From NCBI GenBank assembly GCA_045863855.1, contig BTVV01000015.1:1-64000 (forward strand): a stretch of 64,000 bases of DNA, read 5' to 3'. Positions 9,750-30,484 of this stretch are shown piece after piece. Every line of letters starts with the position of its first letter. Position 1 is the stretch's first letter. This stretch comes from Planctomycetota bacterium (GTDB lineage Bacteria > Planctomycetota > SZUA-567 > H5-PLA8). The notes beneath the pieces are model-generated. The model was not told the DNA's origin and made no database searches. It saw only the letters and a program-made list of their open reading frames with translations. The position numbers were made by a program, and so were the translations under genes.

Positions 9750-9764
9750 GGCCGGAGTATACGC

Positions 9765-10661: not shown

Positions 10662-10741
10662 GGCGGTGACTCCCTTGGGAAGATGGAGGGTTGAAGGAGC
10701 GCGACACTGTAGCTCAAGGGCAGAGCGTGAAAAGCGCCGAA

Positions 10742-11641
10742 TCAGTTCAGGAAAAGCAGCGCCACGCCGCAGACGGCGAGAACGGCGCCCAGCACGGCGC
10801 GGAGCGTCACGTGTTCCTTATGCAGCCAGACGGCGAAGGGAATGATCAGGACCGGGACGAGCGCCATGATCGTCGCGGCCACTCCGGTCGCGGTGTGCTG
10901 CACGGCCAGCAGCGACAGGCCCACGCCCAGAAACGGTCCCGCGAACGCTCCGCCTAAACTGTAGAGCATGCCGCGTCCGTCGGAGAGCGCGTTCCAGACG
11001 CGCGGCCACCAGCCGATGCAAGCGAAGAGCACCGCGAATCCGGCGATCCCCGCCACCACGCGGATCTGCGTCGCGGCGAACGGATCGTACGAGCCCATAC
11101 CGAATTTGCCGATCACCAGGCCCAGTGCTTGCCCCACCGCGCCGCCGAACGCCAGCGCGATGCCCTTGGACCGCTCGGCGGCCGGATCCTCCTGCGCGGC
11201 CGGTTGGCGCTCCAGGACGACCCAGGCGACGCCGGCCAGCGTGAGCGCCATGCCCAGCCAATCGGTCGGGCGCAACCGTTCGCCCAGCAGCGCCCACCCG
11301 AACAGGGCCGCCATGGGCGGCCAAAGCGACATGACCAGCATGGAGACGCGCGGGCCGACGAGGAGATAGGCGCGAAAGAGGCACAGGTCGCCCAGCGTGA
11401 AGCCGATAAAGCCGGAGAGCGCGAGCCAGCCCCACGCTTCCGGCGTCGCGTCGCCGGGCAAGGCATGCCCGCGCACGAACACGCCGTAGAGGCACAGCAG
11501 CGCGAAGGCCATGAAAAGGCGAATCTGGTTCAGCGCAAGCGAGCCGATGCGCTTGCCGGCGGCGGCAAAGAAGAGCGCGCTGACGGTCCAGCAGGCAGCG
11601 GTCGCCAGCGCGGCGGTTTCGCCGGGGTAGAGGAGTTTCAT
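10742..11641 (-). CDS. DMT/EamA family transporter
   Basis: About 10 TM helices in two repeats (LLGERL, LHKEHV). Confidence 0.9.
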
Positions 11642-11712
11642 GGAGCCGCCTTCAGCATCTGAATCAGGTCAGGCAGTATGGGCTTCACGGGGTATTGCGC
11701 AAGCGCGGTCCA

Positions 11713-11747
11713 GAAAGCACCGCGCCACGGCTTTGAACCGTGGCGCG
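11713..11747 (-). terminator. Hairpin, possible terminator after murE
   Basis: CGCGCCACGG/CCGTGGCGCG stem at 11721-11747. Weak U-tract on the minus strand. Confidence 0.5.
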
Positions 11748-11776
11748 TGTACAGCGATCGATGACCTGAATTGGAC

Positions 11777-13306: not shown

Positions 13307-13308
13307 GG

Positions 13309-15180: not shown

Positions 15181-15216
15181 GCGTTCCCGAGGCTGGTCTG
15201 GCCTCCGAAGCCTGCG

Positions 15217-15501
15217 TTACGGATGCGTCGCGCGAACTTCGCGCGGCGTATAGAGTTCCAGTTCCGAAACCGGGCGGACCGGGAGGCGCAATTCGGCCGC
15301 TCGGTCGATGACACGCTGGGGCGTTTGGAGCGCGAGCAAGCGGGCGCGTTCTGCCGCGATTTCTTTGCGCACTTCGCGCAATTGAGCTTCGTATTCGGCA
15401 AGTACATAGCCGCGCTCGATTTGCTCTTGGCTGTCGCGGACCGAGACCAAGCCGGCCGCGGCGAGGGCGCCCAAGAAGAGCAGATGCCGTCCGCTAAACA
15501 T
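15217..15501 (-). CDS. ftsL: FtsL-like cell division protein
   Basis: Short TM plus coiled coil ending LQTPQRVIDRAAEL. Lies between rsmH and ftsI. Confidence 0.65.
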   Translation of the reverse strand: MFSGRHLLFLGALAAAGLVSVRDSQEQIERGYVLAEYEAQLREVRKEIAAERARLLALQTPQRVIDRAAELRLPVRPVSELELYTPREVRATHP

Positions 15502-15513
15502 GGCGTTCGATTC

Positions 15514-16509
15514 CTAGAGCGCCGGTGCATCCTCTAACCTGCGCAGCGCTCTAAACTTAGCGCTTCGGCTGCGGGGGTTGGCGCGTTCCTCTTCTGCCGA
15601 GGGGCGCAGCACCGACTTATGCACCTTCTGGAATCGTCCGGTTTGGGCCTGCAACTTGAAGGCTTGTTTGACCTTCCGGTCTTCGCCGGAATGAAAACTG
15701 ATCACGCCCAGCGTCCCGCCGGGCGCGAGGCGCTCGGGCGCGGCGACCAGGAAAGCTTCCAGCGCGTCCAATTCGCCGTTTACGGCCATGCGTAGTGCTT
15801 GGAAAGTCCGTGTGGCAGGGTGGATACGTTGATGCCCGCGGACCTTAAGGGCGCGGCGGACAAGCTCTTCAAGCTGCCCCGTGGTCTGCACCGGATTGCC
15901 GCGGCGGCGGGCTTCGACGATCCAGCGCGCAATGGCTCGGGAGCGGCGTTCTTCGCCCAAATGGAAGAGCACGTCTGCGATCTCGGTCTCGGAGAGGGTG
16001 CGCAGAAGGTCCGCCGCTGTATGTGGAAGTCTAGGATCCATACGGAGATCCAGCGGCGCATCGAAGCGGAAACTAAAGCCCCGGCCGGGGCGGTCGAGCT
16101 GCATCGACGAGACGCCCAGATCGGCCAAGATGCCGCGGGGTTCGCGTCCGGCCAGGTGCGCGTCGAGAACGCTGCCCAGTTCACGAAAGTTGGATTGGAC
16201 CAGCAACAGTTTCACATCTTTAGCTGCGGCAATGGGTTCCAGGCGCGGTCGGGCCAGTTCGAGGGCCTCGGGATCCACGTCGAGCCCTAGGAGCGTGCCG
16301 CCCGGGGCCAGCGCGTCGAGCATGGCGGCGGAGTGTCCGCCGGCGCCGAGGGTGGCGTCCACGGCCAGATCACCCGGCCGAAGTCTAAGCGCATCAAGGG
16401 TTTCGAGCGGTAATACGGAGACGTGCGGAAGGCCCGGAGACGGGTCGGCTTCTGGCGTTGAGGATGCGTTGGACTCGGGCGGCTGCGGGGCGTCGGGGGG
16501 TGCGCCCAT
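15514..16509 (-). CDS. rsmH: 16S rRNA m4C1402 methyltransferase
   Basis: DATLGAGGHS, DLGVSSMQLD, GFSF, LDLRMD, TRTFQALR, NPRSRSAK. Confidence 0.96.
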   Translation of the reverse strand: MGAPPDAPQPPESNASSTPEADPSPGLPHVSVLPLETLDALRLRPGDLAVDATLGAGGHSAAMLDALAPGGTLLGLDVDPEALELARPRLEPIAAAKDVKLLLVQSNFRELGSVLDAHLAGREPRGILADLGVSSMQLDRPGRGFSFRFDAPLDLRMDPRLPHTAADLLRTLSETEIADVLFHLGEERRSRAIARWIVEARRRGNPVQTTGQLEELVRRALKVRGHQRIHPATRTFQALRMAVNGELDALEAFLVAAPERLAPGGTLGVISFHSGEDRKVKQAFKLQAQTGRFQKVHKSVLRPSAEEERANPRSRSAKFRALRRLEDAPAL

Positions 16510-16569
16510 GAGCGAATCGCCGCGCGGAGGCCCGCGCGGCTCCTTCCTATATCCCTATTCCGACCAGAC

Positions 16570-16824
16570 TTACAGGCCTGCGGCGGCGGCGTGGCGAGCC
16601 GGAAGCGCGCGGACGTTCGCGCGCGCATCGAGGCCCGAAACGCGCAGCAGGCTCTGCATGAACGGTGAAAGTTCAACGCCGCCAAAGGCTTGGCTAAGGC
16701 TGCGGACTTCGTCGCAGCGCCGCACCAAAGCTTCCACGTCGTCGTGTAACTCCTGTGGCGCCGGAGCGTTAGCTCCTTTGCTCCGCAGGTGTTCGCTGAC
16801 CCGATCGATGCTCGACTTGCCCAT
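16570..16824 (-). CDS. Small hypothetical protein with STAS-like C-terminal motif
   Basis: GGAGG upstream of ATG. LSPFMQSLLRVSGLD resembles the STAS C-terminal helix. Confidence 0.55.
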   Translation of the reverse strand: MGKSSIDRVSEHLRSKGANAPAPQELHDDVEALVRRCDEVRSLSQAFGGVELSPFMQSLLRVSGLDARANVRALPARHAAAAGL

Positions 16825-16873
16825 CTTCCCCTCCTCCGCGCGGTGGTAACGGGGGGCCGCCCCCCGCGCTCTA

Positions 16874-17395
16874 TTAGAGATTCAAAAGCCCTGTAACTTT
16901 CATGGCCGTTTCAGCAATACGCGCGCTCTTTTTCTGATCGTAGTCGCGCCGCGCTTCGGCCGGCCAGAGTTCGATGCGGTTAAACGCGCCGCAGAACGCC
17001 ACCTCTTCGCGCATGCCGAGTTGGTCGACCCAGGCGGCGGGCAGGACGAAGCGTCCCTGCTTGTCCGGCTCGATTGGCTCGGCCCCGCCGGAGAGGTGGG
17101 CGACCAGTTCGGCCTTCGTTGCCTCGTCCAAATCCTGACGTTGCCGGATGTTGTCGATGATCGTGTCCAACTGCGTCTGCGTGTAGAGGCGCAGGAAGCC
17201 TTCGTCGTTCCAGCGCATCAAGAGGAGCTGGCCTTCGTTGCTCTCTTCGAGCGTCTTCATCAAGTTGCGCGGGATTGCGACCTGGTTGCGCCCGGAGACC
17301 TTATGGAAGGCCGTGCCGAAGAACGTGGCGCGCCGCGGAGCGGTGGGTCGTTCGTTCGGAGTAGTCGGCCCTAGTGTGGTCACGGTCGCTCGCAT
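16874..17395 (-). CDS. mraZ: MraZ transcriptional regulator
   Basis: FFG...NQVAIP, DKQGRFVLP, G..NRIELW. First gene of the dcw block. Confidence 0.9.
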   Translation of the reverse strand: MRATVTTLGPTTPNERPTAPRRATFFGTAFHKVSGRNQVAIPRNLMKTLEESNEGQLLLMRWNDEGFLRLYTQTQLDTIIDNIRQRQDLDEATKAELVAHLSGGAEPIEPDKQGRFVLPAAWVDQLGMREEVAFCGAFNRIELWPAEARRDYDQKKSARIAETAMKVTGLLNL

Positions 17396-17466: not shown

Positions 17467-17810
17467 GGGGGGTATCTCGTTGGAATGTAAGGATTTCGAA
17501 GAGGGGTGCAGATGTGGGGCTTATTTTTCCCTACTTACGCAAGGGGTAGTGGGTCGGCGGCGCAGGAATTCGAAGATAGTTGGCTGGAGCTTTACCACCA
17601 TCGACCGGTTGCACTGGTGCTCTTGAGGAAATTCTGCGCCGCGGGCGGTTCGGTGGCACTAACGGATAGGCTTCGGCGGCCGCGGAAAAGCCTGCAAGAA
17701 GGAGCAGGCGGGCGAGGGCTGGCGCCGGAACATCCCGTACGCACGATTTATTCGTTCGAATGCGGGCAGATGAGGCTTGCCTTGAGGACTTCGGAGCATA
17801 CGCTGTGCGT

Positions 17811-18230
17811 ATGTCGCATACGGCGCGCCGGAGCGGCATCGAGCCGGACACCGTGGGGGTTTCGCGCATGCTTTCCTTCGAACTTCCCAGACCGTCGGGG
17901 GCCGAGTGGGATCAACGCGTGTTGAGCGTGCAGCTCACGCCGGCGGGGGCGCCGTTCGAACTGGAAGTGGTGTTGCAGGGTTCGCTTGCCGCGATGCTGG
18001 GCGAGAAGCTCGATAAGCGCGCGGTGCTGCATGTCACGCATTTGACGCCGACCGGCCGGCGGGGCCGCTTGCGCGCTCAGGTGAGTTTCGAGCGGCTCGA
18101 ACTGACCGACGAGCCGGATCGAGCGGAGTCGTTGACGCTGATCGTGGATATGGATGCTCGGAATCTGGACGAGATCCTGCGCTGGCAGGAGAGCGCTCGG
18201 ATGACGATTACGCGCAGTTTGCGCGCGTAA
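17811..18230 (+). CDS. Hypothetical protein
   Basis: Protein-like ORF divergent from mraZ. TACGCT 6 nt before ATG17811. Confidence 0.6.
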   Translation: MSHTARRSGIEPDTVGVSRMLSFELPRPSGAEWDQRVLSVQLTPAGAPFELEVVLQGSLAAMLGEKLDKRAVLHVTHLTPTGRRGRLRAQVSFERLELTDEPDRAESLTLIVDMDARNLDEILRWQESARMTITRSLRA

Positions 18231-18472
18231 TTTTCCGGCAAGGTTCGTAACTTTCCCCGTTCTGTTTTCGCACTCGTGCGCCTCTTTTTCGAACGAGCTT
18301 TAAGGACTTATGAGCGCGAAAGCGCGGTCTATACCACCTCGCGCACGTCGAGCAAAAATTCGATTCTGCTATAAAACTGCCATAAATCGCTGCTGCAAAG
18401 CGTATATTTGCACGCAGGTGCTTAGTGTCCGGGCGGCTATGCGCGAGGGGCTGAACGGGTGCGGGTGGGTTA

Positions 18473-18500
18473 AAAATTGGAAATTCAAAATTCAAAATTT
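18473..18500. repeat. Heptamer tandem repeat x4
   Basis: AAAATTG GAAATTC AAAATTC AAAATTT. Confidence 0.7.
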
Positions 18501-18596
18501 CGGGCGATTGGCAACATTCCGAAAATAAAGAGGCCGGCGCGTGGCGGCGGAATCGGCGTGGCTTTCCGTGGCCTTTGGCGTTCGATGGGCAGGGCG

Positions 18597-18624
18597 GTAA
18601 AGAGCAAAGAGTAAAAAGTAAACG
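18597..18624. repeat. Heptamer tandem repeat x4
   Basis: GTAAAGA GCAAAGA GTAAAAA GTAAACG. Confidence 0.65.
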
Positions 18625-18769
18625 TTATGCGTGACGCGCGATAGGCGGGGCGCCGGACGGGTTGGGGTACGGGAGACGGTTGACAGGCTCGGTAAAAGGA
18701 ATAACAACTTGGCGGAGTGGGATTGCAGGGGCGGTAGTGGGCGTGGTTGGCCGGGTAGCCGGCAGGAAT

Positions 18770-18843
18770 CTGTTTAATGGATGCTGTGGCGGTGGGCGAT
18801 AGGTCTGAGGTTTGAGCGCGTGCGGATGGTTGGGCGCGGAGCA
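18770..18843 (+). repeat. Array repeat A, copy 1 (3'-truncated)
   Basis: ctgtttaatggatgctgtggcggtgggcgatagg...tttgagcgcgtgcggatggttgggcgcggagca. Confidence 0.85.
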
Positions 18844-18932
18844 AGCACGCGGAAATTTCCCCATGGTACCTTTGTTTCTCGGCTACTTGGCCAGCAAAGG
18901 GGAATACACTCGCCGTTGTGGAGATCGTTGTA

Positions 18933-20138
18933 ATGAGAGTACCGGTTAAACCTGAACTCCTTCGCTGGGCCTGCGCGCGCGCGGGCAAGCCGGAGTCGGC
19001 GTTAGCCGAAAAATTTGCTGGCTACGAGGGCTGGTTGGCCGGCAGGAAGCACCCCACGCTTAAGCAACTCGAAGAGTTCGCACGAGCAACCCGCACGCCC
19101 TTCGGTTTCTTTTTCCTACAGGAACCACCGGTCGAGACGATCCCGATACCCGACTTCCGCACCGTCGGGAGCGAGCGCCTCCAGCACCCTTCGCCCGACT
19201 TGCTGGACACCATCTTTCTCTGCCAGCAGCGCCAAGATTGGTATCGCCAAAACGCTTTGATGCTGGGCGATCCGGCGCTGGACTTCATCGGCTCCGCCAC
19301 CGTGCGGAGCGATGTCGTCGCTACCGCCGCGCGCATCCGCCGGACCGTCGGGTTCGACCTCGACGCCCGAGTCAAAGCGTCCACCTTCCTCGACGCACTC
19401 CGCATGACGATCGACGCGGCCGACGAAGCGGGCATACTCGTCATGGTCAGCGGCATCGTGGGGCACAACTCTCATCGACCGCTCGACACCGCCGAGTTCC
19501 GTGGCTTCGCCCTCTGCGACGCCTCTCCCCATTTCGCCCCGCTCGTATTTATCAACGGCGCCGACACCAAGTCCGGCCAGATGTTCACGCTCGCCCACGA
19601 ACTGGCTCACCTGTGGCTCGGCGAGTCTGGCGTCTCGGATGTCACCCCCGCCTCGTCCCTTCCGCAGCGGACTGAGGGCGGAGCCGGCATCGAGCGCTGG
19701 TGCAACGCCGTCGCGGCGGAGATGCTCGTTCCCCTCGAGGGCTTCCAACAGGCCTACCGCCGCCGTGCCGATTTGCGGCCGGAGATGCAGCGCCTCAGCC
19801 GGCAATACAAGGTCAGCACGCTGGTCATCCTCCGCAGAATGTTCGACGCCGGCGGCCTAACCCGCGATGTTTTTCAGGTAGCGTTTGACGCCGAACTCCA
19901 GCGCCTCAAATCCGAACTCGCCCGGCGCAAGGCCAAGGGCGGCGGTGGAGACTACTACGCGACGACCTCCGTCCGCGTTAGCGAGCGCTTTGCCAAGGCC
20001 GTGCTCGCCAGCACCTGGGAGGGTCGCTCCAGCTTCACCGAGGCGTTCCGCCTGCTCGGCTGCCGCAACGTCAAGACCCTCGAATCCCTCGGCGATCGCC
20101 TCGGCATGGCCGCCTACCTTAGTGGTGGGGCCGTCTAA
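18933..20138 (+). CDS. HTH plus ImmA/IrrE family Zn metallopeptidase
   Basis: N-terminal HTH (PTLKQLEEFA..P.GFFFL), FRGFAL, FTLAHELAH (HExxH), E.WCN.VAAE. GGAG before ATG18933. Confidence 0.9.
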   Translation: MRVPVKPELLRWACARAGKPESALAEKFAGYEGWLAGRKHPTLKQLEEFARATRTPFGFFFLQEPPVETIPIPDFRTVGSERLQHPSPDLLDTIFLCQQRQDWYRQNALMLGDPALDFIGSATVRSDVVATAARIRRTVGFDLDARVKASTFLDALRMTIDAADEAGILVMVSGIVGHNSHRPLDTAEFRGFALCDASPHFAPLVFINGADTKSGQMFTLAHELAHLWLGESGVSDVTPASSLPQRTEGGAGIERWCNAVAAEMLVPLEGFQQAYRRRADLRPEMQRLSRQYKVSTLVILRRMFDAGGLTRDVFQVAFDAELQRLKSELARRKAKGGGGDYYATTSVRVSERFAKAVLASTWEGRSSFTEAFRLLGCRNVKTLESLGDRLGMAAYLSGGAV

Positions 20139-20641
20139 TGGCCTACCTCCTCGACACCGGAGTATTCATTGAGGCCAAGCGCCGATTCTACGGTCTGGAT
20201 TTTGTTCCCGGCTACTGGGACTGGCTCATGCGTGAGGCTAAGTCGGGCACGATCCGCTCCATCGAAAAGGTCGCCGACGAAATCGGCGCACAGCAGGACG
20301 AACTGAGCGCTTGGGCCGCGGCGTTACCGAGTGGATTCTTCCTGCGCCCCGACGCCACCTTCAGTACTGCGTTCCAGCAGGTGAGCCAGTGGGCGCTCAC
20401 CTCAGGTTTCCAACCCGCAGCGTACAACGAGTTCCTTGGAGTAGCCGATTCGTTCCTGGTCGCACAGGCTCTAGCTGGCCATCACACCGTAGTGACCCTG
20501 GAGAAGCCCGCCACGACGCCCAGCAAACGGAAGATCAAAGTCCCTGACGCGTGCGCCGGCGTCAGCGTCAAATGCATGACGCCTTACGAGGTGATGCGAC
20601 TGCGGGGCGTACGGTTGGTGCTTGCGGGAGTCGCGACCTAG
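20138..20641 (+). CDS. DUF4411 PIN-like protein
   Basis: YLLDT.VFIEA..FY, ADSFLVAQA, VVTLE, KIKVPDAC. TAATG overlap with the upstream gene. Confidence 0.85.
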   Translation: MAYLLDTGVFIEAKRRFYGLDFVPGYWDWLMREAKSGTIRSIEKVADEIGAQQDELSAWAAALPSGFFLRPDATFSTAFQQVSQWALTSGFQPAAYNEFLGVADSFLVAQALAGHHTVVTLEKPATTPSKRKIKVPDACAGVSVKCMTPYEVMRLRGVRLVLAGVAT

Positions 20642-20823
20642 CGAGAGGACAGTAGAGAAGTGTTGCGAGTAATCTGGAGCAATCGGCGGGTGGCCACCCG
20701 GCAATTGATTTTTGGGCGCTATGGAGCAAAGGCTGTTTTCTTACTCCATGCCGAACCGCCTGCTAAGCGTAGGGATGCTGGCCCTGGAAGCGACGGTGGC
20801 CGTTTTCGGAACCGGCTGAGACC

Positions 20824-21279
20824 GTGATGACTAAACCGGATTACGACGATCCTGAAGTTGAGGCGCGCTGGTGCGATGCGCAGCGGAAGGCGGTCGCCGA
20901 TTACCTGCGTTCTCAGAAACTCAAGCACGGTCGAATCGGGGATGGGCCGGCATGGCACGTAGCTCCGCATGTGTCGATCTGGGCCGTGGAGAGCCTGAGC
21001 CGGCCCGAATGGATCGGCTGGTGGGCCATCTGTGGCGATCTGCCGACGGATTACCTTTCTGCAGCCGACGTGGAACCGCCGCAGCATCCCAGGAAAGCCT
21101 TGCGCATTTTCGCCGAGAACTGGCTTGGCATTGTGCAGGCCTGGAGGGAAGGGCGAGAAATCGAGCATACTCGCATCGGCGATCTGAGTTCCCGGAACGA
21201 ATTAGGACCGTTGCTTGAATCGCGGGCCCGGATGTTAATGACGTGGGCTCAAGACGATGCGCTGTGGGAAGAAGCGTGA
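20824..21279 (+). CDS. DUF4826-like protein
   Basis: WWAICGDLPTDY...PRKALR.F...W pattern. Confidence 0.7.
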   Translation: MMTKPDYDDPEVEARWCDAQRKAVADYLRSQKLKHGRIGDGPAWHVAPHVSIWAVESLSRPEWIGWWAICGDLPTDYLSAADVEPPQHPRKALRIFAENWLGIVQAWREGREIEHTRIGDLSSRNELGPLLESRARMLMTWAQDDALWEEA

Positions 21280-21281
21280 CG

Positions 21282-21362
21282 GTTTATTTGTTGCCGTGGG
21301 GGTGGGTTGAGTGCGTGCGGTCGGCTGGGCACGGAGCAGCGCCCACGGCGCTTGCGCCGGGG
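21282..21362 (+). repeat. Array repeat A, copy 2
   Basis: tgccgtggg...ttgagtgcgtgcggtcggctgggcacggagcagcgcccacggcgcttgcgccgggg. Confidence 0.9.
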
Positions 21363-21402
21363 TCGCCGCTACTGGCCTGGAAGATAGGAAGCTGCATTTC
21401 CC

Positions 21403-21660
21403 ATGAGCCCGACCAGTCCACAGAGATTCCCACGATGGAGGCGTATGCTGTTCTTCGGCGCCGTACTTTTAGGTTTGCCTGTCACCGGCTGGGCGATTGG
21501 GGAGCGCAGCTACCTGCTGGCGGTTTTTGCCGGCCTCGCTTCCGTTTTGGCTGTTGCGTCCAGTATTTCGTCCAAGCGTTGTCCGAATTGTCGGGAGCGA
21601 TTATTCACCATTAGTTATCCCGCGTCCCATTGTCCGAAGTGCGGAACCTCATATACATGA
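21403..21660 (+). CDS. Small 2-TM protein with C-terminal zinc ribbon
   Basis: Two hydrophobic helices followed by CPNC...CPKC. Confidence 0.7.
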   Translation: MSPTSPQRFPRWRRMLFFGAVLLGLPVTGWAIGERSYLLAVFAGLASVLAVASSISSKRCPNCRERLFTISYPASHCPKCGTSYT

Positions 21661-21727
21661 ATTCGAGTAGTCGTTCAGGACTTGCTTTTGAGGGGTGGCC
21701 TAATTCAAGCGAGGCGGTTCGACGCGT

Positions 21728-22048
21728 ATGATACTTCCATTGTTCCTGTGCCTTGGGTTCGCGTGGACCGTGAGCGACGGGCTGCACGATTCGGATGGCG
21801 CGCTTGCCGTTTACGCTCCTGCCGAATTGCCCGCACGGACGGTTGAGTCCTTTCGATTTATCGGCGCGGCCACCACGCTTAGGGAAGTGACCGCCCGACT
21901 TGGCGCGCCGGATCAGGATAGGGGCAGCGGACTCTTTGTTTCTGTCTATCGGCTGGCGGACGGCAGCGAAGTGCTGATCGGTTCAGCCGATGGCGCGCAG
22001 GTGCTTTACGTGAGGCATGGTCGGGCTGTTTTGTTTGAGCGGCGATGA
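21728..22048 (+). CDS. Small exported hypothetical protein (SmpA/BLIP-like pattern)
   Basis: Signal-like N-terminus. T..EV..RLG.PD...GSG....Y motif. Confidence 0.6.
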   Translation: MILPLFLCLGFAWTVSDGLHDSDGALAVYAPAELPARTVESFRFIGAATTLREVTARLGAPDQDRGSGLFVSVYRLADGSEVLIGSADGAQVLYVRHGRAVLFERR

Positions 22049-22085
22049 GACCGTGGTTTCGCCATGCGGGGGACGGGACGGGCGT

Positions 22086-22162
22086 GAGAGATGGGGCGCG
22101 GCTTTCATGGGGTTGTAAACGCCTGCGGCGCCCCCATCACGGGGTGATGGGGGGCACCCGGG
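22086..22162 (+). repeat. Array repeat B, copy 1
   Basis: gagagatggggcgcggctttcatggggttgtaaacgcctgcggcgcccccatcacggggtgatggggggcacccggg. Confidence 0.92.
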
Positions 22163-22206
22163 AGCCAAACGCAAGATCACGGCCACCCGCCCTTTGGGAG
22201 CGTCCT

Positions 22207-22950
22207 ATGCGTCGAATGATGCACTTCAAGGCAATTACTTGGGTAATTCACTTCCTAATGTGTGGGTCGATTTGCGCTGGCGAAGAATCGCCGGTCCATT
22301 TCGTTGATCCTGTGCTTTTAGAAGCTTTCAAATCCAAAGTGACCAACGAAAAGGAAACAGGGAAGGTCGTCGGAAATATTCATGGACTGCATTATTTATT
22401 AGATTTAGAGATTGCCAATAGACTTAATGCGCTTGACCCAGGTGACGGCGATCATGCCACGGAATTGTCTCTAGTTTTGGGGCTATGCAGTGAAAAGATT
22501 GGGACGCACACCGCAAAGGCGATGATTCGCCATATCAGGCATGTCATGGTGGTTACTACCACATACCCCGCATCCAGCAGAGGACTGCCGGAGGCGTTGA
22601 GGCCTGCCTTTGACTTATTGGTGAAGCATGCATCGCCCGATCTTGTTTGCTTTTCTATCCTTGATTTCATTCATGAAAAGGACGGGCGGGCTATGTTAGA
22701 TGATACGGAGATGTCCATCGTTCTTGGCAGATTGTGGATGAGAGTAAGCGTGCCCAACATGCCGCCTTGGTTTCCGAAAGAAGAAGTTAACTCGGATGAG
22801 ATTCGAAAGCAGTCGCTCGAATTACTCCAAAAACGAAAAGTGTACTATGAATCAAAGGGAAAGGACGAAGCGGAGAATTTAAGGCGCATCACAAAGCTGA
22901 TTGAAGTCGTATTAAGAACGCCGGTAACGGTCATGGATCTTAAGGAGTGA
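22207..22950 (+). CDS. Exported hypothetical protein (AT-richer)
   Basis: GGGAG then ATG22207, signal-like segment, codon usage unlike the backbone. Confidence 0.7.
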   Translation: MRRMMHFKAITWVIHFLMCGSICAGEESPVHFVDPVLLEAFKSKVTNEKETGKVVGNIHGLHYLLDLEIANRLNALDPGDGDHATELSLVLGLCSEKIGTHTAKAMIRHIRHVMVVTTTYPASSRGLPEALRPAFDLLVKHASPDLVCFSILDFIHEKDGRAMLDDTEMSIVLGRLWMRVSVPNMPPWFPKEEVNSDEIRKQSLELLQKRKVYYESKGKDEAENLRRITKLIEVVLRTPVTVMDLKE

Positions 22951-23025
22951 CGAGTGGTGGGTGGCAGTGCGGTTTGCGGTTTACTCGCATAGACGGGAAG
23001 CCAGTGGGAACCCTTTTTAGGGCTA

Positions 23026-23227
23026 CCGTTGCGGTGGGCGATAGGTTGAAAGTTTGAGCGCGTGCGGATGGTTGGGCACGGAGCAGCGCCCACGGCGGTT
23101 GGTCCGCGGCACCCGGCACTCGGCTGGTGCGGTGGAGTGCGATTCGGGCGGGAGAGATGGGGCGCGGCTTTCATGGGGTTGTAAACGCCTGCGGTGCCCC
23201 CATCACGGGGTGATGGGGGCACCCGGG
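23026..23227 (+). repeat. Composite repeat A(3)+linker+B(2)
   Basis: A at about 23026-23097, B at 23152-23227 with a perfect 14-bp stem (23193-23223). A partial A copy follows at 23228-23254. Confidence 0.92.
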
Positions 23228-23447
23228 AGGTTTGAGCGGGTGCGGGCGTGGCACCCGGTTCTGTCCACGCACCCGACTGAGAAGCGTAACCCGGGGGAAT
23301 GAATGAGTGTCTGGTCAAAAACGTTCCCCATCGCCATCCATGCTAGGCGTCCTGAAGTATTTCCCCGTGTTTGCGGTTGTTTTGATTGCAATGGGCCGCT
23401 GCGATCCAGAGACCGGAACCACAAAGTCAAAATCACGGGAGGTCACT

Positions 23448-23885
23448 ATGGATAGTACTTATATTCACCCCAAACTTGGCGAACTTTATCCAGAAGATGT
23501 CGATTGGCAGACCGACAAGGCTACGGTCCCCTTTAGTAATACACCCATCGAGGTTTGCTTCGCCAATGGCTCCAAGGACGGACCTTGGCCGGCCGCATTA
23601 ACAGGTTACGATTGGATTGAATCACACTGGAGTGAAGTGCTCGGATTAATTCAAGATCAAGCGTTTGATTTCTATAGTCCCTATGCAGACGCTGTCGCTG
23701 GCGTACCGGTATTCGCCTCTCCAGAAAAGCTTTGGGGTACCGAGGAGTTACTTTGCGTAAGAGTGTCTACCAAGGACGATTTCGAGGTAACCCTACGATT
23801 TAAATGGCAGGAAAAAGAGGATCCTCATGTGATTACCTTCTACGTCGAAAAGGGGCGATGCGAAACACACTCGGTTGATGGATGA
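23448..23885 (+). CDS. Acidic hypothetical protein, immunity-protein-like
   Basis: GGAGG before ATG23448. HP.LGEL...W N-terminus, W...EDPH C-terminus. AT-richer. Confidence 0.7.
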   Translation: MDSTYIHPKLGELYPEDVDWQTDKATVPFSNTPIEVCFANGSKDGPWPAALTGYDWIESHWSEVLGLIQDQAFDFYSPYADAVAGVPVFASPEKLWGTEELLCVRVSTKDDFEVTLRFKWQEKEDPHVITFYVEKGRCETHSVDG

Positions 23886-23907
23886 AGATGAGCAGGTTGG
23901 TTGAGAC

Positions 23908-24005
23908 CTGTTTAATGAATGGCTAGGCGGTGGATGGTTGGGCGGTGGCTTGAACGCGTGCGGACGGTTGGGCACGGAGCAGCGCCCACGGCGCTTGCGC
24001 CGGGG
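23908..24005 (+). repeat. Array repeat A, copy 4
   Basis: ctgtttaatgaat...ttgaacgcgtgcggacggttgggcacggagcagcgcccacggcgcttgcgccgggg. Confidence 0.9.
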
Positions 24006-24073
24006 CAATGTGAAAATCGGCCATCCGCTCGAACGCTATATCGAGGCTCGTGCGAGGAGGTGAAGGGCGCGCC

Positions 24074-24745
24074 ATGTTCAATCGCATCAGGCAGTTCTTC
24101 GGCGGTTCTAAAAAGGAGCCGCCGCCGACGAATGAGGAATTCGCCCAGCAGGCGGAGGCTTGGTACGAGCGGAAGTCGAAGCTCATGGAGGAGATTCTCG
24201 GGCGCGAGCACGGGATGGTGATGCACGCGATCATCCCGTATGCGGTGGGCGGGGCGCTGGACCTTTACTACTATCCGCACGGGGTTCCCGGGACGGGGAT
24301 CGCGACGAAGGAACTCTCGGAGCTGCCCGGCCAGGGTTCGTCGAACCGCGTCTTTTCGTGCTACGAACTCGCGATGTTCACGCGCCACGCGTTGAACCTG
24401 GATGAAGCCAAGGATGCGTCGACTCCCTTTGGCCGCGCGCACGGAACCATCAATTCGATATTAAATATGATCGCTCGGTACAGCGCCACGGCGTCGTTGA
24501 ACCCGAACGAGACGTGCGAGTTTCCGGCCGAGATGGAGCGCGTGGGCGGGAAGTGCCTGATCTTCGACGCGTACGGCGTTCCGAGGCCCGAGCCGAAACG
24601 CGCCTTTGGCGTGCTGGCTGTGATCGAAGTTTACCGTTCGGAGATGGCGTTTGCGCGCACGGAAGGTGGCGCGGCGCTGCTCCAGCGGCTGAAGGACGCC
24701 GGGCACTATCCGTACTCGGATTTGGACCGGGAGCCGGTGGCGTGA
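24074..24745 (+). CDS. Suppressor-of-fused (SuFu) domain protein
   Basis: GGALDLYYY, IATKELSE, YELAMFT, EMAFAR..G..ALL.RLK...YPYSDLDREPV. Confidence 0.8.
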   Translation: MFNRIRQFFGGSKKEPPPTNEEFAQQAEAWYERKSKLMEEILGREHGMVMHAIIPYAVGGALDLYYYPHGVPGTGIATKELSELPGQGSSNRVFSCYELAMFTRHALNLDEAKDASTPFGRAHGTINSILNMIARYSATASLNPNETCEFPAEMERVGGKCLIFDAYGVPRPEPKRAFGVLAVIEVYRSEMAFARTEGGAALLQRLKDAGHYPYSDLDREPVA

Positions 24746-24789
24746 GGCCGCGTGGAAGGGGTAGGGTGGGCGGTGGGCGGTGGGCGTTA

Positions 24790-24997
24790 GTTTCAAGGAT
24801 GCTGTGGCGGTGGGTGATGGGTTGAAGGTTTAGGCGCGTGCGGTCGGAGAGTCGCGGAGCAGCGCCGACGGCGCTTGCTCTGTGGCAGTCGGCTGATGCG
24901 GTGGGGTGCGATCCGGACGGGAGAGATGGAGCGCGGTTTTCATGGGGTTGTAGACGCCTGCGGCGCCCCCATCACGGGGTGATGGGGGGCACCCGGG
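24790..24997 (+). repeat. Composite repeat A(5)+linker+B(3)
   Basis: Colinear with 23026-23227. Preceded by (GGTGGGC)x3 at 24765-24785. Confidence 0.92.
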
Positions 24998-25021
24998 TAC
25001 CCGGCCTAAGGGCAGTCGTTT

Positions 25022-25546
25022 ATGGGCGAGATTCATCTGGCTTCAAGAGACGGAGATCTGCAGCGGGTCAAAGAAATACTCGAGCATGATCCCGGTCTCA
25101 TCGAATCGCGAAATGAGTACGACTATTCGCCTTTGCATTTAGCCGCAGAACGCGGGCGTACGTCCGTGGTGGAATATCTATTGGACGCAGGAGCAAATGT
25201 GAACTGCATCGATTCCGAGAATTATACGAAGACGCCGCTTTTTTTAGCCGCCGAATGTGGAAGAATTTGCGTCTGCATGATTTTAGTTGCACGCGGCGCC
25301 GATGTTAATTGTCGCGAAGAAACTTATAAAACTACACCCTTACACGAGGCGGCACGGTATGGATTTTTCGATATTGTTGAATTCTTGATTGAGAGCGGCG
25401 CGGACATAAATGCCGTTGACGATGACCATATAAGTACGCCATTGGATTTAGCGGTCGAAAACAGGCGGGAAAAATCTATCGAGGTGCTGCTTAGGAGGGG
25501 TGCCGTAGCGCGCCAGGGCTCTTCGCGCGGCGGTGCGCCGAGTTGA
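25022..25546 (+). CDS. Ankyrin repeat protein
   Basis: SPLHLAA, TPLFLAA, TPLHEAA, TPLDLA with GA.VN linkers. AT-richer. Confidence 0.92.
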   Translation: MGEIHLASRDGDLQRVKEILEHDPGLIESRNEYDYSPLHLAAERGRTSVVEYLLDAGANVNCIDSENYTKTPLFLAAECGRICVCMILVARGADVNCREETYKTTPLHEAARYGFFDIVEFLIESGADINAVDDDHISTPLDLAVENRREKSIEVLLRRGAVARQGSSRGGAPS

Positions 25547-25600
25547 TTCGAGAGGCGCGGGTGGCAAGCGCGTTCGTTATGCTGCGGGGGAGGTAGGCGT

Positions 25601-25706
25601 CTGTTTTATGGATGCCGTGGCGGTAGATGATGGGGTGGAGGATTGAGTGCGTGCAGTCGGCGGGGTACGGAGCAGCGCCCACGACGCTTGCTCTGTGGCA
25701 CTCGGC
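25601..25706 (+). repeat. Array repeat A, copy 6, with start of linker
   Basis: ctgttttatggatgccgtggcgg...ttgagtgcgtgcagtcggcggggtacggagcagcgcccacgacgcttgctctgtggcactcggc. Confidence 0.88.
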
Positions 25707-25839
25707 GCGTGACGCGTTTGGGTTCGGCGACGATCGACTGCCGGCGGCGCCGGCCGACTCAAGCCGGATTGACTTCTGCTCTTGGCGCTTTCGCGCGGCG
25801 GCGTTTCCTCCATACTGTAGGGCAGGCAGGAGGCATCGC

Positions 25840-26403
25840 GTGACGGACGCGCCGGAAGGGAAGTCCAGCTATACGGGCCTGTGGGTTTTCCTGGGCTTGG
25901 CGGGCTATGTCACGGCTTGCGTTGGGGGCATCTACCTCCTCACGGGGGAGATCGTCGCCGAAAGCGGTTTCAAGGCTCTCGTTGCGGGCACGCTCGGAAG
26001 CCTGTTCGCGATCCTTATACTGGGCGCGCTCGCGAGTGCCTTGATTCTGGATCGCTTCAAGAGCGACCCGGCAGGGCGGGCGCGCGCGGCGATGGCATTG
26101 AGCGGCGTGCTGTTGCTCGCGGTGGCGTCCTTCGCCTGGTTCGAATTCCAGCCGCTGGCTGCGCGAAATCCCAGTTCTTTCTACGGCGCTCCCCAAGCCC
26201 GCTACGAAGTCACCTTTGCCTCGGGCGCCCAAGAGATTCGAACCGGCGCGCAGCTCGGCACTGAAGAGTGGAGCTGGTGGGTGGGGTTCTACTTCTCGAT
26301 CCTGTTGGTCGGCGGCGCATCGGGCTTGTGGATGTTCGGTTCCAACCTGCTGGCCAGCTTTCGCATTCCGGAAAGCGCCGGCTCCGTCCCGCCCGATGCG
26401 TAG
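25840..26403 (+). CDS. 4-TM membrane protein
   Basis: AGGAGG before GTG25840, four hydrophobic segments. Confidence 0.7.
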   Translation: MTDAPEGKSSYTGLWVFLGLAGYVTACVGGIYLLTGEIVAESGFKALVAGTLGSLFAILILGALASALILDRFKSDPAGRARAAMALSGVLLLAVASFAWFEFQPLAARNPSSFYGAPQARYEVTFASGAQEIRTGAQLGTEEWSWWVGFYFSILLVGGASGLWMFGSNLLASFRIPESAGSVPPDA

Positions 26404-26535
26404 GCCCTGAGTTCGGCGTAGCTCGCATGCCTCGGTGCACAGGCGAGCCGAGTCCCGCGTAACATGGCTGAATAGGTATTGAACGCGCGCGGCGCTTAGA
26501 TCATGGAATGATGGTTTATTTTCTGGAATGCAATA

Positions 26536-26832
26536 ATGACCATCCAATCTATTATCGTTCCCGTTTTTTCGTGGATCGTTGTGTTAATGCCGCTCTGGCT
26601 TGGTTGGTTTATTGGGAAAAAAGCTTGCATGAAATCGATTAAGAGGCTTTTGCTTCTAGGTCTGATTCCGATCATTATTTCATCCGTTTTTTTGTCGGTG
26701 CATTCCACAGAAGGAGACCCTCACCAGGAGAATGCTTTGGCGGTATTTGTGGTGTTGATTTGGCTCGAAACTACTTTTGTTGCCGCCCACTTTTTCAGAA
26801 CTATGGCAGATCGAAATGCCGTTAAGGATTAA
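26536..26832 (+). CDS. Small 3-TM membrane protein (AT-rich)
   Basis: Three hydrophobic helices in very AT-rich DNA. Confidence 0.65.
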   Translation: MTIQSIIVPVFSWIVVLMPLWLGWFIGKKACMKSIKRLLLLGLIPIIISSVFLSVHSTEGDPHQENALAVFVVLIWLETTFVAAHFFRTMADRNAVKD

Positions 26833-26877
26833 GTGGATTGTTAAGCGGTCTTACTTAAGGCGATTTCGTTTCGGTGC

Positions 26878-26933
26878 GCGCTTCGCGCGGAAAATTTTTT
26901 CACCTCCCCTACCCCTCCTTGGCAAGGAGGGGA
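26878..26933 (+). repeat. REP-like repeat C, copy 1
   Basis: gcgcttcgcgcgg-N10-cacctcccctacccctccttggcaaggagggga. Stem cccctcctt/aaggagggg. Confidence 0.75.
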
Positions 26934-27019
26934 AAGGCTCGGTCAAAAGCAAAATGCAATTGGTGAGACCGCATAGCCGCCGACATGGAGGCTTCGGTCG
27001 GACAGTGCGGTTGTGGCGC

Positions 27020-28348
27020 TTACACGGGCAGGTCGAAGAGATCGCGGGCGAGGCGGAGGATCTCGGGGCGTTGTTCTTTGGGCATGCCGCGGGGAAAGGG
27101 GAGTTTGGGGGTTTCGGCGGCTTCGAGGGCCAGCGGTGCGGCGGCGTTGAGCACGCGGCAGAGCGCCTCGGGGCTGACGGTGCCCAGATGATCGTGCGGG
27201 CTGTGGTGCTGCCAGCGCCCGCCGGGGAAATTGCTGCGGTGGTACCAGACGGCCGGGACGCCGTAGACGGTGAGCGGGAAGTGGTCGCCGAAGGGCGTGA
27301 TCGTCACGTGCGGGCGGACTTCGAGGCCGGCTTGGGCGAGTCGTTCGACGGCCCAGCGCCCGACGGCGGGGGCTCCGGCGATGAGCAGATCGGTATGCCC
27401 CAGGGCGGAGGAGAGGGAATCGAAGTTGAAGAGGAGCGCGTGGGCGTTCATCTCGCGGCGGTGCTTGAGGACGTAATGCTTGGCTCCGACGCTGAGCTGT
27501 TCTTCGGTCCCGAACGAGATGAAGCGCAGTCCGCGGCGGGTGGGCTTCTTGCGCGCGCGCAGCGCGAGCACTCGGGCGAGCGCCAATAGGCTGACCGTAC
27601 CGCTGGCGTTGTCGTCGGCTCCGGGGTTGCCGAGCTGTGTATCGTAGTGGCAGCCGAAAGCGACCATCCCGGCCTTCGGATCGCGCCCGGGCCAGTCGGC
27701 GACGACGTTGTAGCTCACCGCATCGACCACTTCGGTCCGCACGCAGGCGCGCACGCGCTTCACGCCGTCGATGCGCCATTGGTAGGCGCTGCGGTAGGCG
27801 ACGCCGACCGTGGGGCGCGCTCCGTGAAGGCGGACCCATTCGGGCAGGAGCCCGTCGGCCTTGGGCCACTCCATGGGCAGGCGGTCGTCGACCCACAAAA
27901 TCACTTCGGCTCCGCTGCGCACGAGCTTGCGGTGCCCGTCGGTATCGGTGCTGAGGGGGCCGAAGACGAGGAGCGCTTTGCCTTTGAGGCTTCCGGGCTT
28001 GAGGCGTTCTTTCTGATCGGGGAGTTCGAGCCAGACGAGTTCGCGTTCTACGGGGCGGTCGGCGGGCGTGGTGGAGGGGCTTCCGGCGAGGACCGAGCAG
28101 GGGACGCGGACCCAGCGTTTGCCGTGTGGGATTTCGATGCGCGCTTCGGCGCGTTTGAGCATGCGGCAGGGGAAGGCTTCGAGTCGCACGTCGGCGCAGC
28201 CCAGGCGGCGGTACTGTTCGAGGAGGTATTCGGCGGCGCGGTGTTCGGCGGCGCTTCCGGCGCGGCGTTCGCCGATGGCGTTGCAAAGCATTTCCCAATG
28301 CGGGAGCAGATGCTGAGGGCGGATGGGGGGCAGGACGGCACTGGCCAT
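27020..28348 (-). CDS. M28 family peptidase
   Basis: HYDT, GADDNASG, GTEE, GDHFP, HHSPHD. Start taken at MASAVL. Confidence 0.88.
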   Translation of the reverse strand: MASAVLPPIRPQHLLPHWEMLCNAIGERRAGSAAEHRAAEYLLEQYRRLGCADVRLEAFPCRMLKRAEARIEIPHGKRWVRVPCSVLAGSPSTTPADRPVERELVWLELPDQKERLKPGSLKGKALLVFGPLSTDTDGHRKLVRSGAEVILWVDDRLPMEWPKADGLLPEWVRLHGARPTVGVAYRSAYQWRIDGVKRVRACVRTEVVDAVSYNVVADWPGRDPKAGMVAFGCHYDTQLGNPGADDNASGTVSLLALARVLALRARKKPTRRGLRFISFGTEEQLSVGAKHYVLKHRREMNAHALLFNFDSLSSALGHTDLLIAGAPAVGRWAVERLAQAGLEVRPHVTITPFGDHFPLTVYGVPAVWYHRSNFPGGRWQHHSPHDHLGTVSPEALCRVLNAAAPLALEAAETPKLPFPRGMPKEQRPEILRLARDLFDLPV

Positions 28349-28472
28349 GCGAGCGATCCTCGCTAAGAGTAAAGGTTGCAAGCGTGCACGAATCGGAAGC
28401 AGTATACCGCGCCGCCCGGGAGCGGCGCGGCGGATTCGCATGCGAGCCGGGGTTCGAGGGAGGGGGTGGGGC

Positions 28473-29336
28473 ATGGCGAAAAAAGCGAGCCGGGCGCGGG
28501 ACGTGCGCCGCGTGTACCTGATGACCGATCTGGAAGGCTGCGCGGGCGTCGACGACTGGGATCCGCGGCACGCCGATTACGTGAATACCGCGCGCTACGT
28601 GTACGAGCGCGCCGAGATGCAGCGGCTCTTGACCGCCGAAGTGAACGCATGCGTCGAAGGCTGCGTGGACGCGGGCGTGGACGAAGTGATCGTGAACGAC
28701 GCTCACGGAGCGGGCCGGACGATTCTGATCGAGGAGCTGCATCCGAAGGCGCTGCTGTTCCGGGGCAAGATGCGGCCGTATTGGCTGATCGGGCTCGACC
28801 GCTGCGACGCGATCTTTCACGTCGGGATGCACGCGATCTCGGATACGACGGCGGGGACGTTGAGCCACACGATGAGCAAGAGCGTGAAGCATTACCGGGT
28901 CAACGGCCGTCCGGTCAGCGAGTTCGATATCTCGATTCTGATCGCCGGGCACCACGGGATACCGGCACCGTTCTTCAGCGGTGAGCGTTTGGCGTGCCAG
29001 CAGGTGAAGACGCTGGCGCCGGCGACCGTCACGGTGGAGACGAAGGAAGGGTTCAGCGAGCAGTGCGCGATCCACCGGATGCCTGCGGTGGTTTGCGCGG
29101 AGATTCGGGAGCGTTCGGCTCGGGCGGTGGACGAGGCGCGGCAGGGCAAGCACCCGCCGGTGGCGTGGAAGGGGCCGTTTACGCTGGAGATCGAGATGCG
29201 CGAACCCTCGTACCGGCCCGAAGATGCGGGTCCGGGCAAGACGTTTAACCACAGCCGGAGCATGTCATGGCGCGCGGCTGACATGGTCTCGGTCTTTAAC
29301 TATGCGGTGTACGGGAAGCGTCCGAAAGCGCGCTGA
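28473..29336 (+). CDS. M55 family D-aminopeptidase (DppA-like)
   Basis: TDLEG, VNDAHG, VGMHA, LSHT, VETKEG. Confidence 0.88.
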   Translation: MAKKASRARDVRRVYLMTDLEGCAGVDDWDPRHADYVNTARYVYERAEMQRLLTAEVNACVEGCVDAGVDEVIVNDAHGAGRTILIEELHPKALLFRGKMRPYWLIGLDRCDAIFHVGMHAISDTTAGTLSHTMSKSVKHYRVNGRPVSEFDISILIAGHHGIPAPFFSGERLACQQVKTLAPATVTVETKEGFSEQCAIHRMPAVVCAEIRERSARAVDEARQGKHPPVAWKGPFTLEIEMREPSYRPEDAGPGKTFNHSRSMSWRAADMVSVFNYAVYGKRPKAR

Positions 29337-30314: not shown

Positions 30315-30372
30315 GCGCTTCGCGCGGTTGGTTCTGCTCACCTCTCCTTGCCCCACCTTGGCAAGGAGGGGA
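30315..30372 (+). repeat. REP-like repeat C, copy 2
   Basis: gcgcttcgcgcgg-N11-cacctctccttgccccaccttggcaaggagggga. Confidence 0.75.
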
Positions 30373-30484
30373 GACGGCGAGGTCCGAGGCAAGACTTCGT
30401 AAGACGGTTGCTCTCACCGCTTGACCTGAATCGTCTCTGCCGCGAGCTTATTCCCGGGAGCCTGAGCGCTCCCGGGAGGCTCGC

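Follow-up and report, generated by a model that had tools for sequence, protein, structure and literature searches.

Leader-headed islands of small, variable genes punctuated by putative transposon-end repeats in a genus of Planctomycetota

The region considered here is an island of eleven short genes in the genome of a Planctomycetota bacterium (assembly GCA_045863855.1, referred to as G000), situated at positions 18231-27019 of a 64,000-nt stretch of contig BTVV01000015.1 (positions 1 to 64,000; hereafter the window), which is itself part of an 80-kb contig. The island lies between two convergent core genes, and its eleven open reading frames (ORFs), which span 18918-26832 and are all on the + strand, occupy the gaps between copies of two non-coding repeat modules, A and B. 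A preliminary description, made from the sequence alone, had likened this arrangement to an integron cassette array. The layout that it reported was confirmed by repeat search, MAFFT alignment and nhmmer, which located six copies of A and three of B, all in the same orientation as the genes. Comparisons were made with two genomes of the same genus, G001 and G002, the assemblies of which are in 6-8 contigs; that of G000 is in 287 contigs and is 94% complete.

The left boundary of the island is a + strand core gene encoding a 156-aa protein with no family match (17760-18230), and the right boundary is a gene on the - strand with a family match to M28 peptidases (27020-28474). At the same locus in G001, which is approximately 71% identical, the two flanking stop codons are only about 10 bp apart and no island is present, so that the whole of 18231-27019 can be considered an island. 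Its first 220 nt or so are themselves a repeat, the leader L (18250-18715, + strand; conserved core 18270-18468). The first copy of A (18765-18895), whose hairpin and 3′ terminus are decayed, separates L from a gene for an ImmA/IrrE-type M78 peptidase domain protein (18918-20138; 406 aa), the stop codon of which is overlapped by the start of a gene for a DUF4411 protein (20138-20641). These two genes form a module, and the M78 gene gave weak PADLOC matches to capP and RmrA; as predicted from the sequence, the module is a candidate toxin-antitoxin or abortive-infection pair. A known defence system was considered for the array as a whole and rejected, PADLOC having matched only the M78 and ankyrin domains among the array genes. 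Downstream of the module is an 18-nt near-palindrome, CGGCGGGTGGCCACCCGGC (20683-20700), which corresponds to two abutted element termini. It is the sole such site in the genome; it was discarded as a general 'empty site', and nothing is built on it here.

The next gene encodes a DUF4826 protein (20824-21279) and is followed by the second copy of A (21273-21377), which lacks its 5′ part, by an 85-aa ORF with weak, sub-threshold zinc-ribbon matches (21403-21660) and by a 106-aa ORF with no family match (21728-22048). The first copy of B (22078-22164), identified by profile and alignment, precedes a 247-aa ORF with no family match (22207-22950) in the part of the array that is lowest in G+C content (0.51, bin 22001-23000). 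The third copy of A (23009-23122) is joined by a linker to the second copy of B (23142-23228), behind which is a fragment of A without a hairpin (23229-23265). A gene with a weak match to DUF6985 (23448-23885; 23.8 bits, cut-off 24.5), the fourth copy of A (23906-24037; alignment and nhmmer) and a SUFU-like gene (24050-24745; 22.8 bits, cut-off 25) come next. The fifth copy of A (24786-24892) is again joined by a linker to a copy of B, the third (24911-24999; profile and alignment). Finally, a gene for an ankyrin-repeat protein (25022-25546) is followed by the sixth copy of A (25596-25721; alignment and nhmmer) and by two ORFs with no family match, of 187 aa (25840-26403) and 98 aa (26536-26832). 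Among the eleven genes, the immunity-type matches are a strong one for ankyrin and two below cut-off, for the SUFU-like and DUF6985 genes. Fragments of A had also been reported at 23228 and 26472; these aligned with A in part only and were not recovered by nhmmer.

The G+C content of 1-kb bins over the array ranged from 0.51 to 0.65, in agreement with the heterogeneous base composition noted previously. The distance from a stop codon to the next module was 0 to approximately 60 nt in the window and 3-5 nt at three junctions in G002, and ORFs start 42 and 22 nt after the first and third copies of B, respectively. The island is closed by a copy of a different, REP-like (repetitive extragenic palindromic) family with the hairpin CCCCTCCTTGGCAAGGAGGGG (26842-26935, with another copy at 30315-30392), which has more than 30 BLAST matches genome-wide and closes the island in G002 as well. 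Upstream of the island, on the - strand, is the ordinary head of a dcw cluster (8490-17395; mraZ, rsmH, an ftsI-type penicillin-binding protein gene and murE).

The three copies of B are 94-97% identical, and the two A-linker-B composites (23015-23227 and 24791-24997) are 81% identical over 214 nt, which bears out the earlier report of a conserved linker. It had also been stated that neither module occurs elsewhere in the window, and no further match to A or B was in fact found with nhmmer anywhere on the 80-kb contig. The implication that A is confined to this locus was not sustained: nhmmer gave 36 matches to A on 16 contigs of G000. The 600 nt downstream of A had a G+C content below 0.56 in 23 of the 36 copies, as compared with 5.9% of background windows (600-nt windows of the genome; median G+C content 0.635). 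The copies are not dispersed among core genes without regard to orientation; they occur in clusters, with a polarity, and are bound to islands. They also form mosaic clusters, with A-linker-B composites and with inverted doublets of A (contigs C189 and C259, locus L031). Outside G000, a scan of 185,579 species representatives for the hairpin core of A gave 34 loci, of which 10, all from one Planctomycetota metagenome-assembled genome, contained true A; the remaining 24 were rejected as chance hairpin matches. BLAST detected A in one of 40 relatives, and a divergent A was found by profile in G001. The subtype of A that is present in the window array is common to the G002 ortholog and rare elsewhere.

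The identity of the repeats was clarified by Pfam matches to Y1_Tnp, which led to genes for REP-associated tyrosine transposases (RAYTs) inside arrays. Five of the seven Y1_Tnp matches in G002 are inside an array with L and A or no more than 3.5 kb downstream of one. Two RAYTs of that genome scored 104 and 102 bits against NF047646 (NCBIfam REP-associated tyrosine transposase, cut-off 80 bits); G002 RAYTs are found inside arrays and are flanked by 57-nt inverted repeats, termed REP-R, that end in GGCCACCCGCG. REP-R is directly fused to A in two places. The RAYT of G001 (193 aa, 85.2 bits) resides in a 779-bp unit that is bounded by CGCGGGTGGCC...GGCCACCCGCG and has perfect 11-nt inverted termini (for example, locus L103, 7478-8256), and no target duplication was seen at these units. 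Approximately ten near-identical copies of the unit are present in G001 (loci L101-L105), which is unusual, since RAYTs are typically single copy (Bertels et al. 2017). In three of four aligned G001 units the right end is followed, at a distance of 20-50 nt, by the start of a low-G+C ORF, which differs each time.

A hidden Markov model built from the three window copies of B matched both ends of all six G001 RAYT units examined (12 of 12 ends, E values 7e-12 to 9e-9). B can therefore be regarded as the solo right end of such a unit. The earlier guess that an enzyme of the HUH/RAYT type might be involved was thus well directed, in that the repeats belong to that enzyme family as judged from the NF047646 scores and from the presence of B at unit ends. 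RAYT-like genes can carry long flanking terminal inverted repeats (TIRs) that form repeat families, elements termed TIRtrons, and REPs are mostly found downstream of ORFs, between unidirectional genes (PMC3733652). G000 itself contains a RAYT-like gene (220 aa; contig C13, 56532-57194, equivalent to locus L097, 6533-7195), which has 17-nt inverted repeats of its own and, at 64 bits on NF047646, is sub-threshold. That gene occupies a cassette position, its neighbours being an ankyrin cassette and a further small ORF.

The hairpins of A, B and REP-R are different from one another, and all three modules end downstream in the motif CCACCCGC(C/G). Information content falls from approximately 2 to approximately 0.1 bit immediately after this motif (27, 15 and 19 distinct ends for A, B and REP-R, respectively), and the next cassette starts where the conservation of the repeat stops. 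The conserved part of A consists of a hairpin of 9-12 bp, CACGGAGCA..TGCTCCGTG, with its surrounding sequence; the hairpin is absent from the copy at 18765. Folding of the whole module was no better for the window copies of A than for shuffled sequences (z +0.93 to -0.60); the hairpin of B is strong (10-14 bp; z -1.06 to -3.62 against shuffles). No Rfam family matched A, B or L, a check that had been called for in the case of A and B.

Two further observations concern the repeats. The terminal motif is tandemly repeated after some copies of A (ACCCGCC reiterated, or CCCGGCCACCCGCC twice; locus L031, 9300-9390, and locus L093, 3470-3500), and these tandem motifs may have arisen through repeated joining or through slippage. 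In addition, matches above the gathering cut-off to the Acido-Lenti-1 RNA (RF01687) were obtained on a repeat other than A, B or L: 15 in 12 G002 loci, and four in another ten loci, of which three were in locus L101 of G001 and one in locus L100 of G002. Examples are found in G002 at L087:2113-2158, L031:7604-7649 and 9153-9198, and L033:4676-4721, and in G001 at L101:7292-7337 and 7440-7485. Many of those in G002 arrays are directly upstream of A and some occur as inverted pairs or tandem triplets, with none in the window. Acido-Lenti-1 may represent transposon ends repeated at the DNA level and not a small RNA.

The leader L, approximately 220-470 nt in length, gave 18 BLAST matches in G000 and 23 in G002, and none in 18 other genomes of the order, and is thus restricted to the genus. 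In the nine G002 loci with both L and A, full-length A was always downstream of L and co-oriented with it (9/9), and there were two antisense partial matches in addition. The positions of L are syntenic between G000 and G002, and the genes behind it differ. In the head region of the window array, homology with the G002 ortholog ends at position 18715 ('...AACAACTTGGCGG|'), with different genes thereafter. A metagenome scan for L yielded a single contig of 1.35 kb, from which arrays could not be compared.

A 12-bp palindrome, TTCCACGTGGAA, is situated just upstream of about half of the L copies, the copy in the window being one of those without it; long copies that have it include those at C79:26288, C38:17617 and C52:16563 in G000, among others. 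Of its 18 genomic occurrences, eight are at most 400 nt from L and several more are at contig ends syntenic with L sites, and control palindromes of the same composition occurred 0-16 times. At three array heads in G001 the sequence CTCCACGTGGAG is found two to four times (for example, L105:9206-9532). TTCCACGTGGAA is likely to be an operator for a regulator, and L looks like a putative promoter/operator region acting at the DNA level. A role for L as a structured RNA was rejected (z +0.43 and +0.45 on the two strands). Scans for sigma-70 promoters and for terminators both gave results at the level of chance (11 terminators found, 11.4 expected).

Polarity extends beyond the single island. Of 23 G002 loci, 22 had elements on the strand that matches the sign of the local GC skew, and the same was true of 44 of 49 elements in G000; in the window, GC skew is positive throughout. 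According to PMC6006769, Y1 enzymes work on the lagging-strand template, and the polarity of the elements would fit Y1 transposition on that template.

It was of interest to compare the contents of the arrays among the three species. At the locus corresponding to that in the window, G002 has flanks that are 90-94% identical and an array of 3.9 kb, which shares with the window only the SUFU-like gene with its 3′ copy of A (83%) and the DUF4826 gene (89%), in reversed order, so that the latter occupies another array position. Such a change in order would need excision and reinsertion rather than deletion alone. When ORFs of low G+C content in 20 G002 array loci were examined, 49 of 64 had no DNA match in G000, as compared with 37 of 222 other ORFs. 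These results substantiate the cassette-like character previously attributed to the genes, since both content and order at the locus differ in a sister species. The sites of the arrays are syntenic across the three species and their contents differ; three of five G001 RAYT-unit loci examined are likewise syntenic with arrays in G002 or G000. It is apparent that the array positions are old. For one cassette only, a relative (72.5% identical) was found in an array that is not syntenic. With regard to function, 31 of 40 G002 array ORFs tested had no Pfam hit, and those with matches included Imm33-like and ankyrin proteins above cut-off and SMI1_KNR4 below it.

Evidence for alternative junctions was sought in four sequencing runs, all as Logan contigs, which are interrupted at L, at A and B and at the copy of the REP-like family; no contig in these runs bridged an alternative junction. 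Three joints were reported, all with a shorter side of fewer than 30 letters, and these were set aside. Contigs of two other studies (X3 and X4) included pieces that differed from the window in no letter, and at that level the array was the same there and not variable.

Taken together, these data point to the assignment of B, very probably, and of A, with somewhat less assurance but still probably, to the REP/TIRtron-RAYT class, that is, to the ends of Y1 transposons or derivatives of them. The proposal that A and B represent a new kind of site thus does not stand, since they fall in a described class. A would be a relative that is non-autonomous, has a hairpin of its own and shares the terminal motif, CCACCCGC(C/G). 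The repeats may have been placed by single-strand cleavage and joining beside a hairpin on the strand exposed during replication; a single-strand Y1 route of this kind predicts that copies follow the local GC skew, lie between genes and lose conservation at one nucleotide. The preferred interpretation of the region, for which the chances are judged to be even, is that it is a hypervariable, leader-headed cassette island with repeats of the REP/TIRtron class, one of approximately 18-23 such islands per genome in the genus. The island would probably be read from L, and its cargo would consist of small, low-G+C genes, mostly of unassigned function and with a few that are immunity-like, which presumably turns over rapidly while the position of the island is kept. 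Tentatively, and with a little less conviction, turnover is attributed mainly to homologous or illegitimate recombination via the repeats, L and the core flanks, the repeats themselves being passengers.

Several points weigh against this interpretation. The suggestion that a repeat might flank a RAYT gene held for B, at both ends of six G001 units, and failed for A, no RAYT flanked by A having been found in any of the three genomes. The G000 assembly holds only the sub-threshold RAYT-like gene and no B-type unit, although RAYT units may be missing from an assembly so fragmented. Inspection of the alignments showed that neither GTAG nor CGTC, the tags of two published REP super-families, is conserved at the foot of the hairpin in A, B or REP-R; the tag is a different and longer motif. 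The termini of A in the window are decayed, and these copies may be relics. Ordinary gene-strand bias would equally give co-orientation with GC skew. Moreover, passive accumulation of repeats leaves three features unexplained: the leader L, the retention of array positions in a genus with core genes only approximately 71% identical, and the start of modules 3-5 nt after stop codons at the three G002 junctions.

The strongest rival gives the transposase an active role. A RAYT/TIRYT enzyme acting in trans would be the recombinase of the arrays, with A and B serving as hairpins accompanied by a top-strand cleavage motif; a gene between co-oriented copies could leave as a single-stranded circle and be joined again 3′ of CCACCCGC(C/G), either in a different copy or where L ends. 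Such an HUH-driven platform is possible but rather doubtful. In its favour, variable DNA begins right after the motif in A, B and REP-R, homology of the leader stops at one nucleotide with different cassettes beyond, and junctions are nearly saturated with repeats. RAYT genes occupy cassette positions, a different low-G+C ORF is found behind three of the four aligned G001 units, and IS200/IS605-type enzymes use hairpins that lie on the same strand at the two ends (PMC6006769). The movement of the SUFU-like gene and its 3′ A relative to DUF4826, and the synteny of array sites with differing contents in three species, would also be accounted for. Against these points, the contigs showed no circle junction, no empty site and no allele with precise excision, sharp ends are to be expected of any transposon, and the termini in the window array are decayed. 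Only a single cassette has a non-syntenic relative, at 72.5%. The sharing of the A subtype with the G002 ortholog is better fitted by local history than by free exchange between arrays, and the entry of a foreign gene without repeats is not explained by the platform. The fuller version of this scheme is considered somewhat unlikely. In it, a Y1-HUH RAYT/TIRYT would be the trans-acting recombinase of a leader-regulated, multi-locus cassette system, the hairpin plus CCACCCGC would play the role of attC and L those of attI and the cassette promoter Pc, with single-strand excision and insertion at approximately 20 platforms. The enzyme-driven capture or shuffling of cassettes put forward in the preliminary description goes beyond the present data, which show no capture or excision by any enzyme.

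A second rival regards the repeats as punctuation selected by the host at the RNA or DNA level: the hairpins would insulate, stabilize or terminate transcripts of long operons starting from L, as do enterobacterial REPs, and an origin from transposons would be secondary. All copies are on the sense strand of the cassettes, the + strand RNA fold is the more stable in seven of seven single A copies (by approximately 12-19 kcal/mol for four in the window and 0.1-7 for three others), and the 12-bp palindrome is present at approximately half of the L copies. Published REPs are mostly downstream of ORFs and plausibly transcribed (PMC3733652). The idea is nevertheless improbable, given that no Rfam family matches A or B, that the whole-module fold of window A copies is not above that of shuffles, and that the hairpins are not followed by a T-run and terminators are at the level of chance.

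Lastly, the relation to integrons was examined. The preliminary description had stated that the repeats are not attC sites, and no canonical RYYYAAC...GTTRRRY pairs 40-160 nt apart were found on either strand of 18231-27019 (mean of 1.3 in mononucleotide shuffles). A relaxed AAC...GTT scan with an L-box gave 8 hits, as compared with 4.3 ± 3.1 in shuffles; three of four sites lay wholly within ORFs, and the fourth extended from the zinc-ribbon ORF into the spacer behind it. No recombinase had been seen in the window, and indeed neither PF00589 nor TIGR02249 (the IntI model, cut-off 265 bits) had a match on the contig. The best TIGR02249 scores in the three genomes were 75.2 (G000), 76.8 (G002) and 77 bits (G001), in matches that skip model positions of approximately 185-240. 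A divergent integron or cluster of attC sites lacking an integron integrase (CALIN), in which attC had drifted beyond recognition and intI was lost or unassembled, would account for compact, co-oriented cassettes mostly without assigned function, for content that differs between relatives and for repeats 3′ of genes, but is close to refuted by the failure to find IntI above cut-off in any of the three genomes, two of which are assembled in 6-8 contigs, by attC-like pairs that are absent in canonical form and within the range of shuffles in relaxed form, by the demonstration that B is the end of a RAYT unit, and by the number of arrays, approximately 20 per genome, all of which have a non-coding leader and lack a neighbouring integrase. 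It is concluded with confidence that the region is not an integron, and the preliminary interpretation as a whole is partly supported.

The genus therefore offers repeats that mark the junctions of approximately 20 conserved, leader-headed loci, rather than being spread over the genome, and the gene content of these loci turns over between species that are approximately 90-94% identical across the flanks. This bears on the long-standing question of the cellular role of RAYTs and of REP/TIR repeats, and in a testable manner: the sites (hairpin plus CCACCCGC(C/G)), the candidate enzymes (three RAYT lineages, represented by L039:4022-4534 in G002, L103:7598-8179 in G001 and the C13 gene in G000) and the targets (the L end and the A ends) are all defined. 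Should the enzymes join cassettes, the arrays would be an integron analogue based on single-strand chemistry; a trans-acting RAYT platform would mean that the integron principle had been invented twice, by independent mechanisms, and would give 'domesticated' RAYTs a function in the host. Should they not, the arrays would be a clear case of Y1 transposon ends colonizing hypervariable, partly immunity-like islands in a polar manner.

Searches outside subscription journals found no published description of REP/RAYT-punctuated, leader-headed, multi-locus arrays in Planctomycetes. The arrays can be compared with several known systems. Integrons and CALINs (Cury et al. 2016, PMC4889954) likewise have compact, co-oriented cassettes with a repeat after the gene, a non-coding head and variable content; in contrast, the arrays have no IntI or attC features, number approximately 20 platforms per genome and contain repeats of a transposase family with other chemistry. 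The rAID-1 arrays of Bacteroidales (Ross et al., 10.1101/471110) and polyimmunity loci (Zhang et al. 2012, PMC3482391) are also arrays of small genes with skewed G+C content and repetitive intergenic sequence, and some cargo of the present arrays matches the immunity families listed for them, SuFu-like, ankyrin, Imm33 and SUKH, although the matches to SuFu, DUF6985 and SMI1 are below Pfam cut-offs. In contrast, the present arrays have no XerD-type recombinase beside them (no PF00589 on the contig) and are headed by the non-coding L, and they carry cargo that is mostly without family, as exemplified by the 31 of 40 G002 ORFs without a Pfam hit.

The remaining comparisons are with systems based on Y1 enzymes. 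IS200/IS605 peel-and-paste elements (PMC6006769) share hairpins on one strand at both ends, the absence of target duplication (as seen at the RAYT units) and a polarity relative to replication, whereas the inverted termini of the G001 unit are perfect over 11 nt; an IS-like element that is bounded by A and encodes a transposase of its own was not found. REPtrons, in which REPs, BIMEs or REPINs are associated with a RAYT (TnpA_REP; PMC6006769), similarly comprise extragenic hairpin repeats with a conserved tag beside the hairpin and mosaic clusters, and in the present genus, too, RAYTs above the NF047646 cut-off are flanked by inverted repeats. The differences are that the tag is CCACCCGC(C/G), on the 3′ side, rather than GTAG or CGTC, that the modules are 90-130 nt or longer rather than 20-40 nt, that there are tens of copies confined to islands rather than hundreds, and that the RAYT is multi-copy in one species rather than single, as is typical (Bertels et al. 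2017). TIRtrons (Di Nocera et al. 2013, PMC3733652) consist of a Y1-HUH gene (TIRYT) flanked by long, palindrome-bearing TIRs, which also occur alone or in groups as a repeat family, and members of the class are reported from Acidobacteria and from the planctomycete R. baltica. This description fits both the 779-bp unit of G001 and the solo copies of B in the window. What sets the present genus apart from TIRtrons so described is that solo ends and the related A are situated at nearly every junction of approximately 20 leader-headed, low-G+C arrays, that all of the repeats are polar and that the unit is present in approximately ten near-identical copies in G001.

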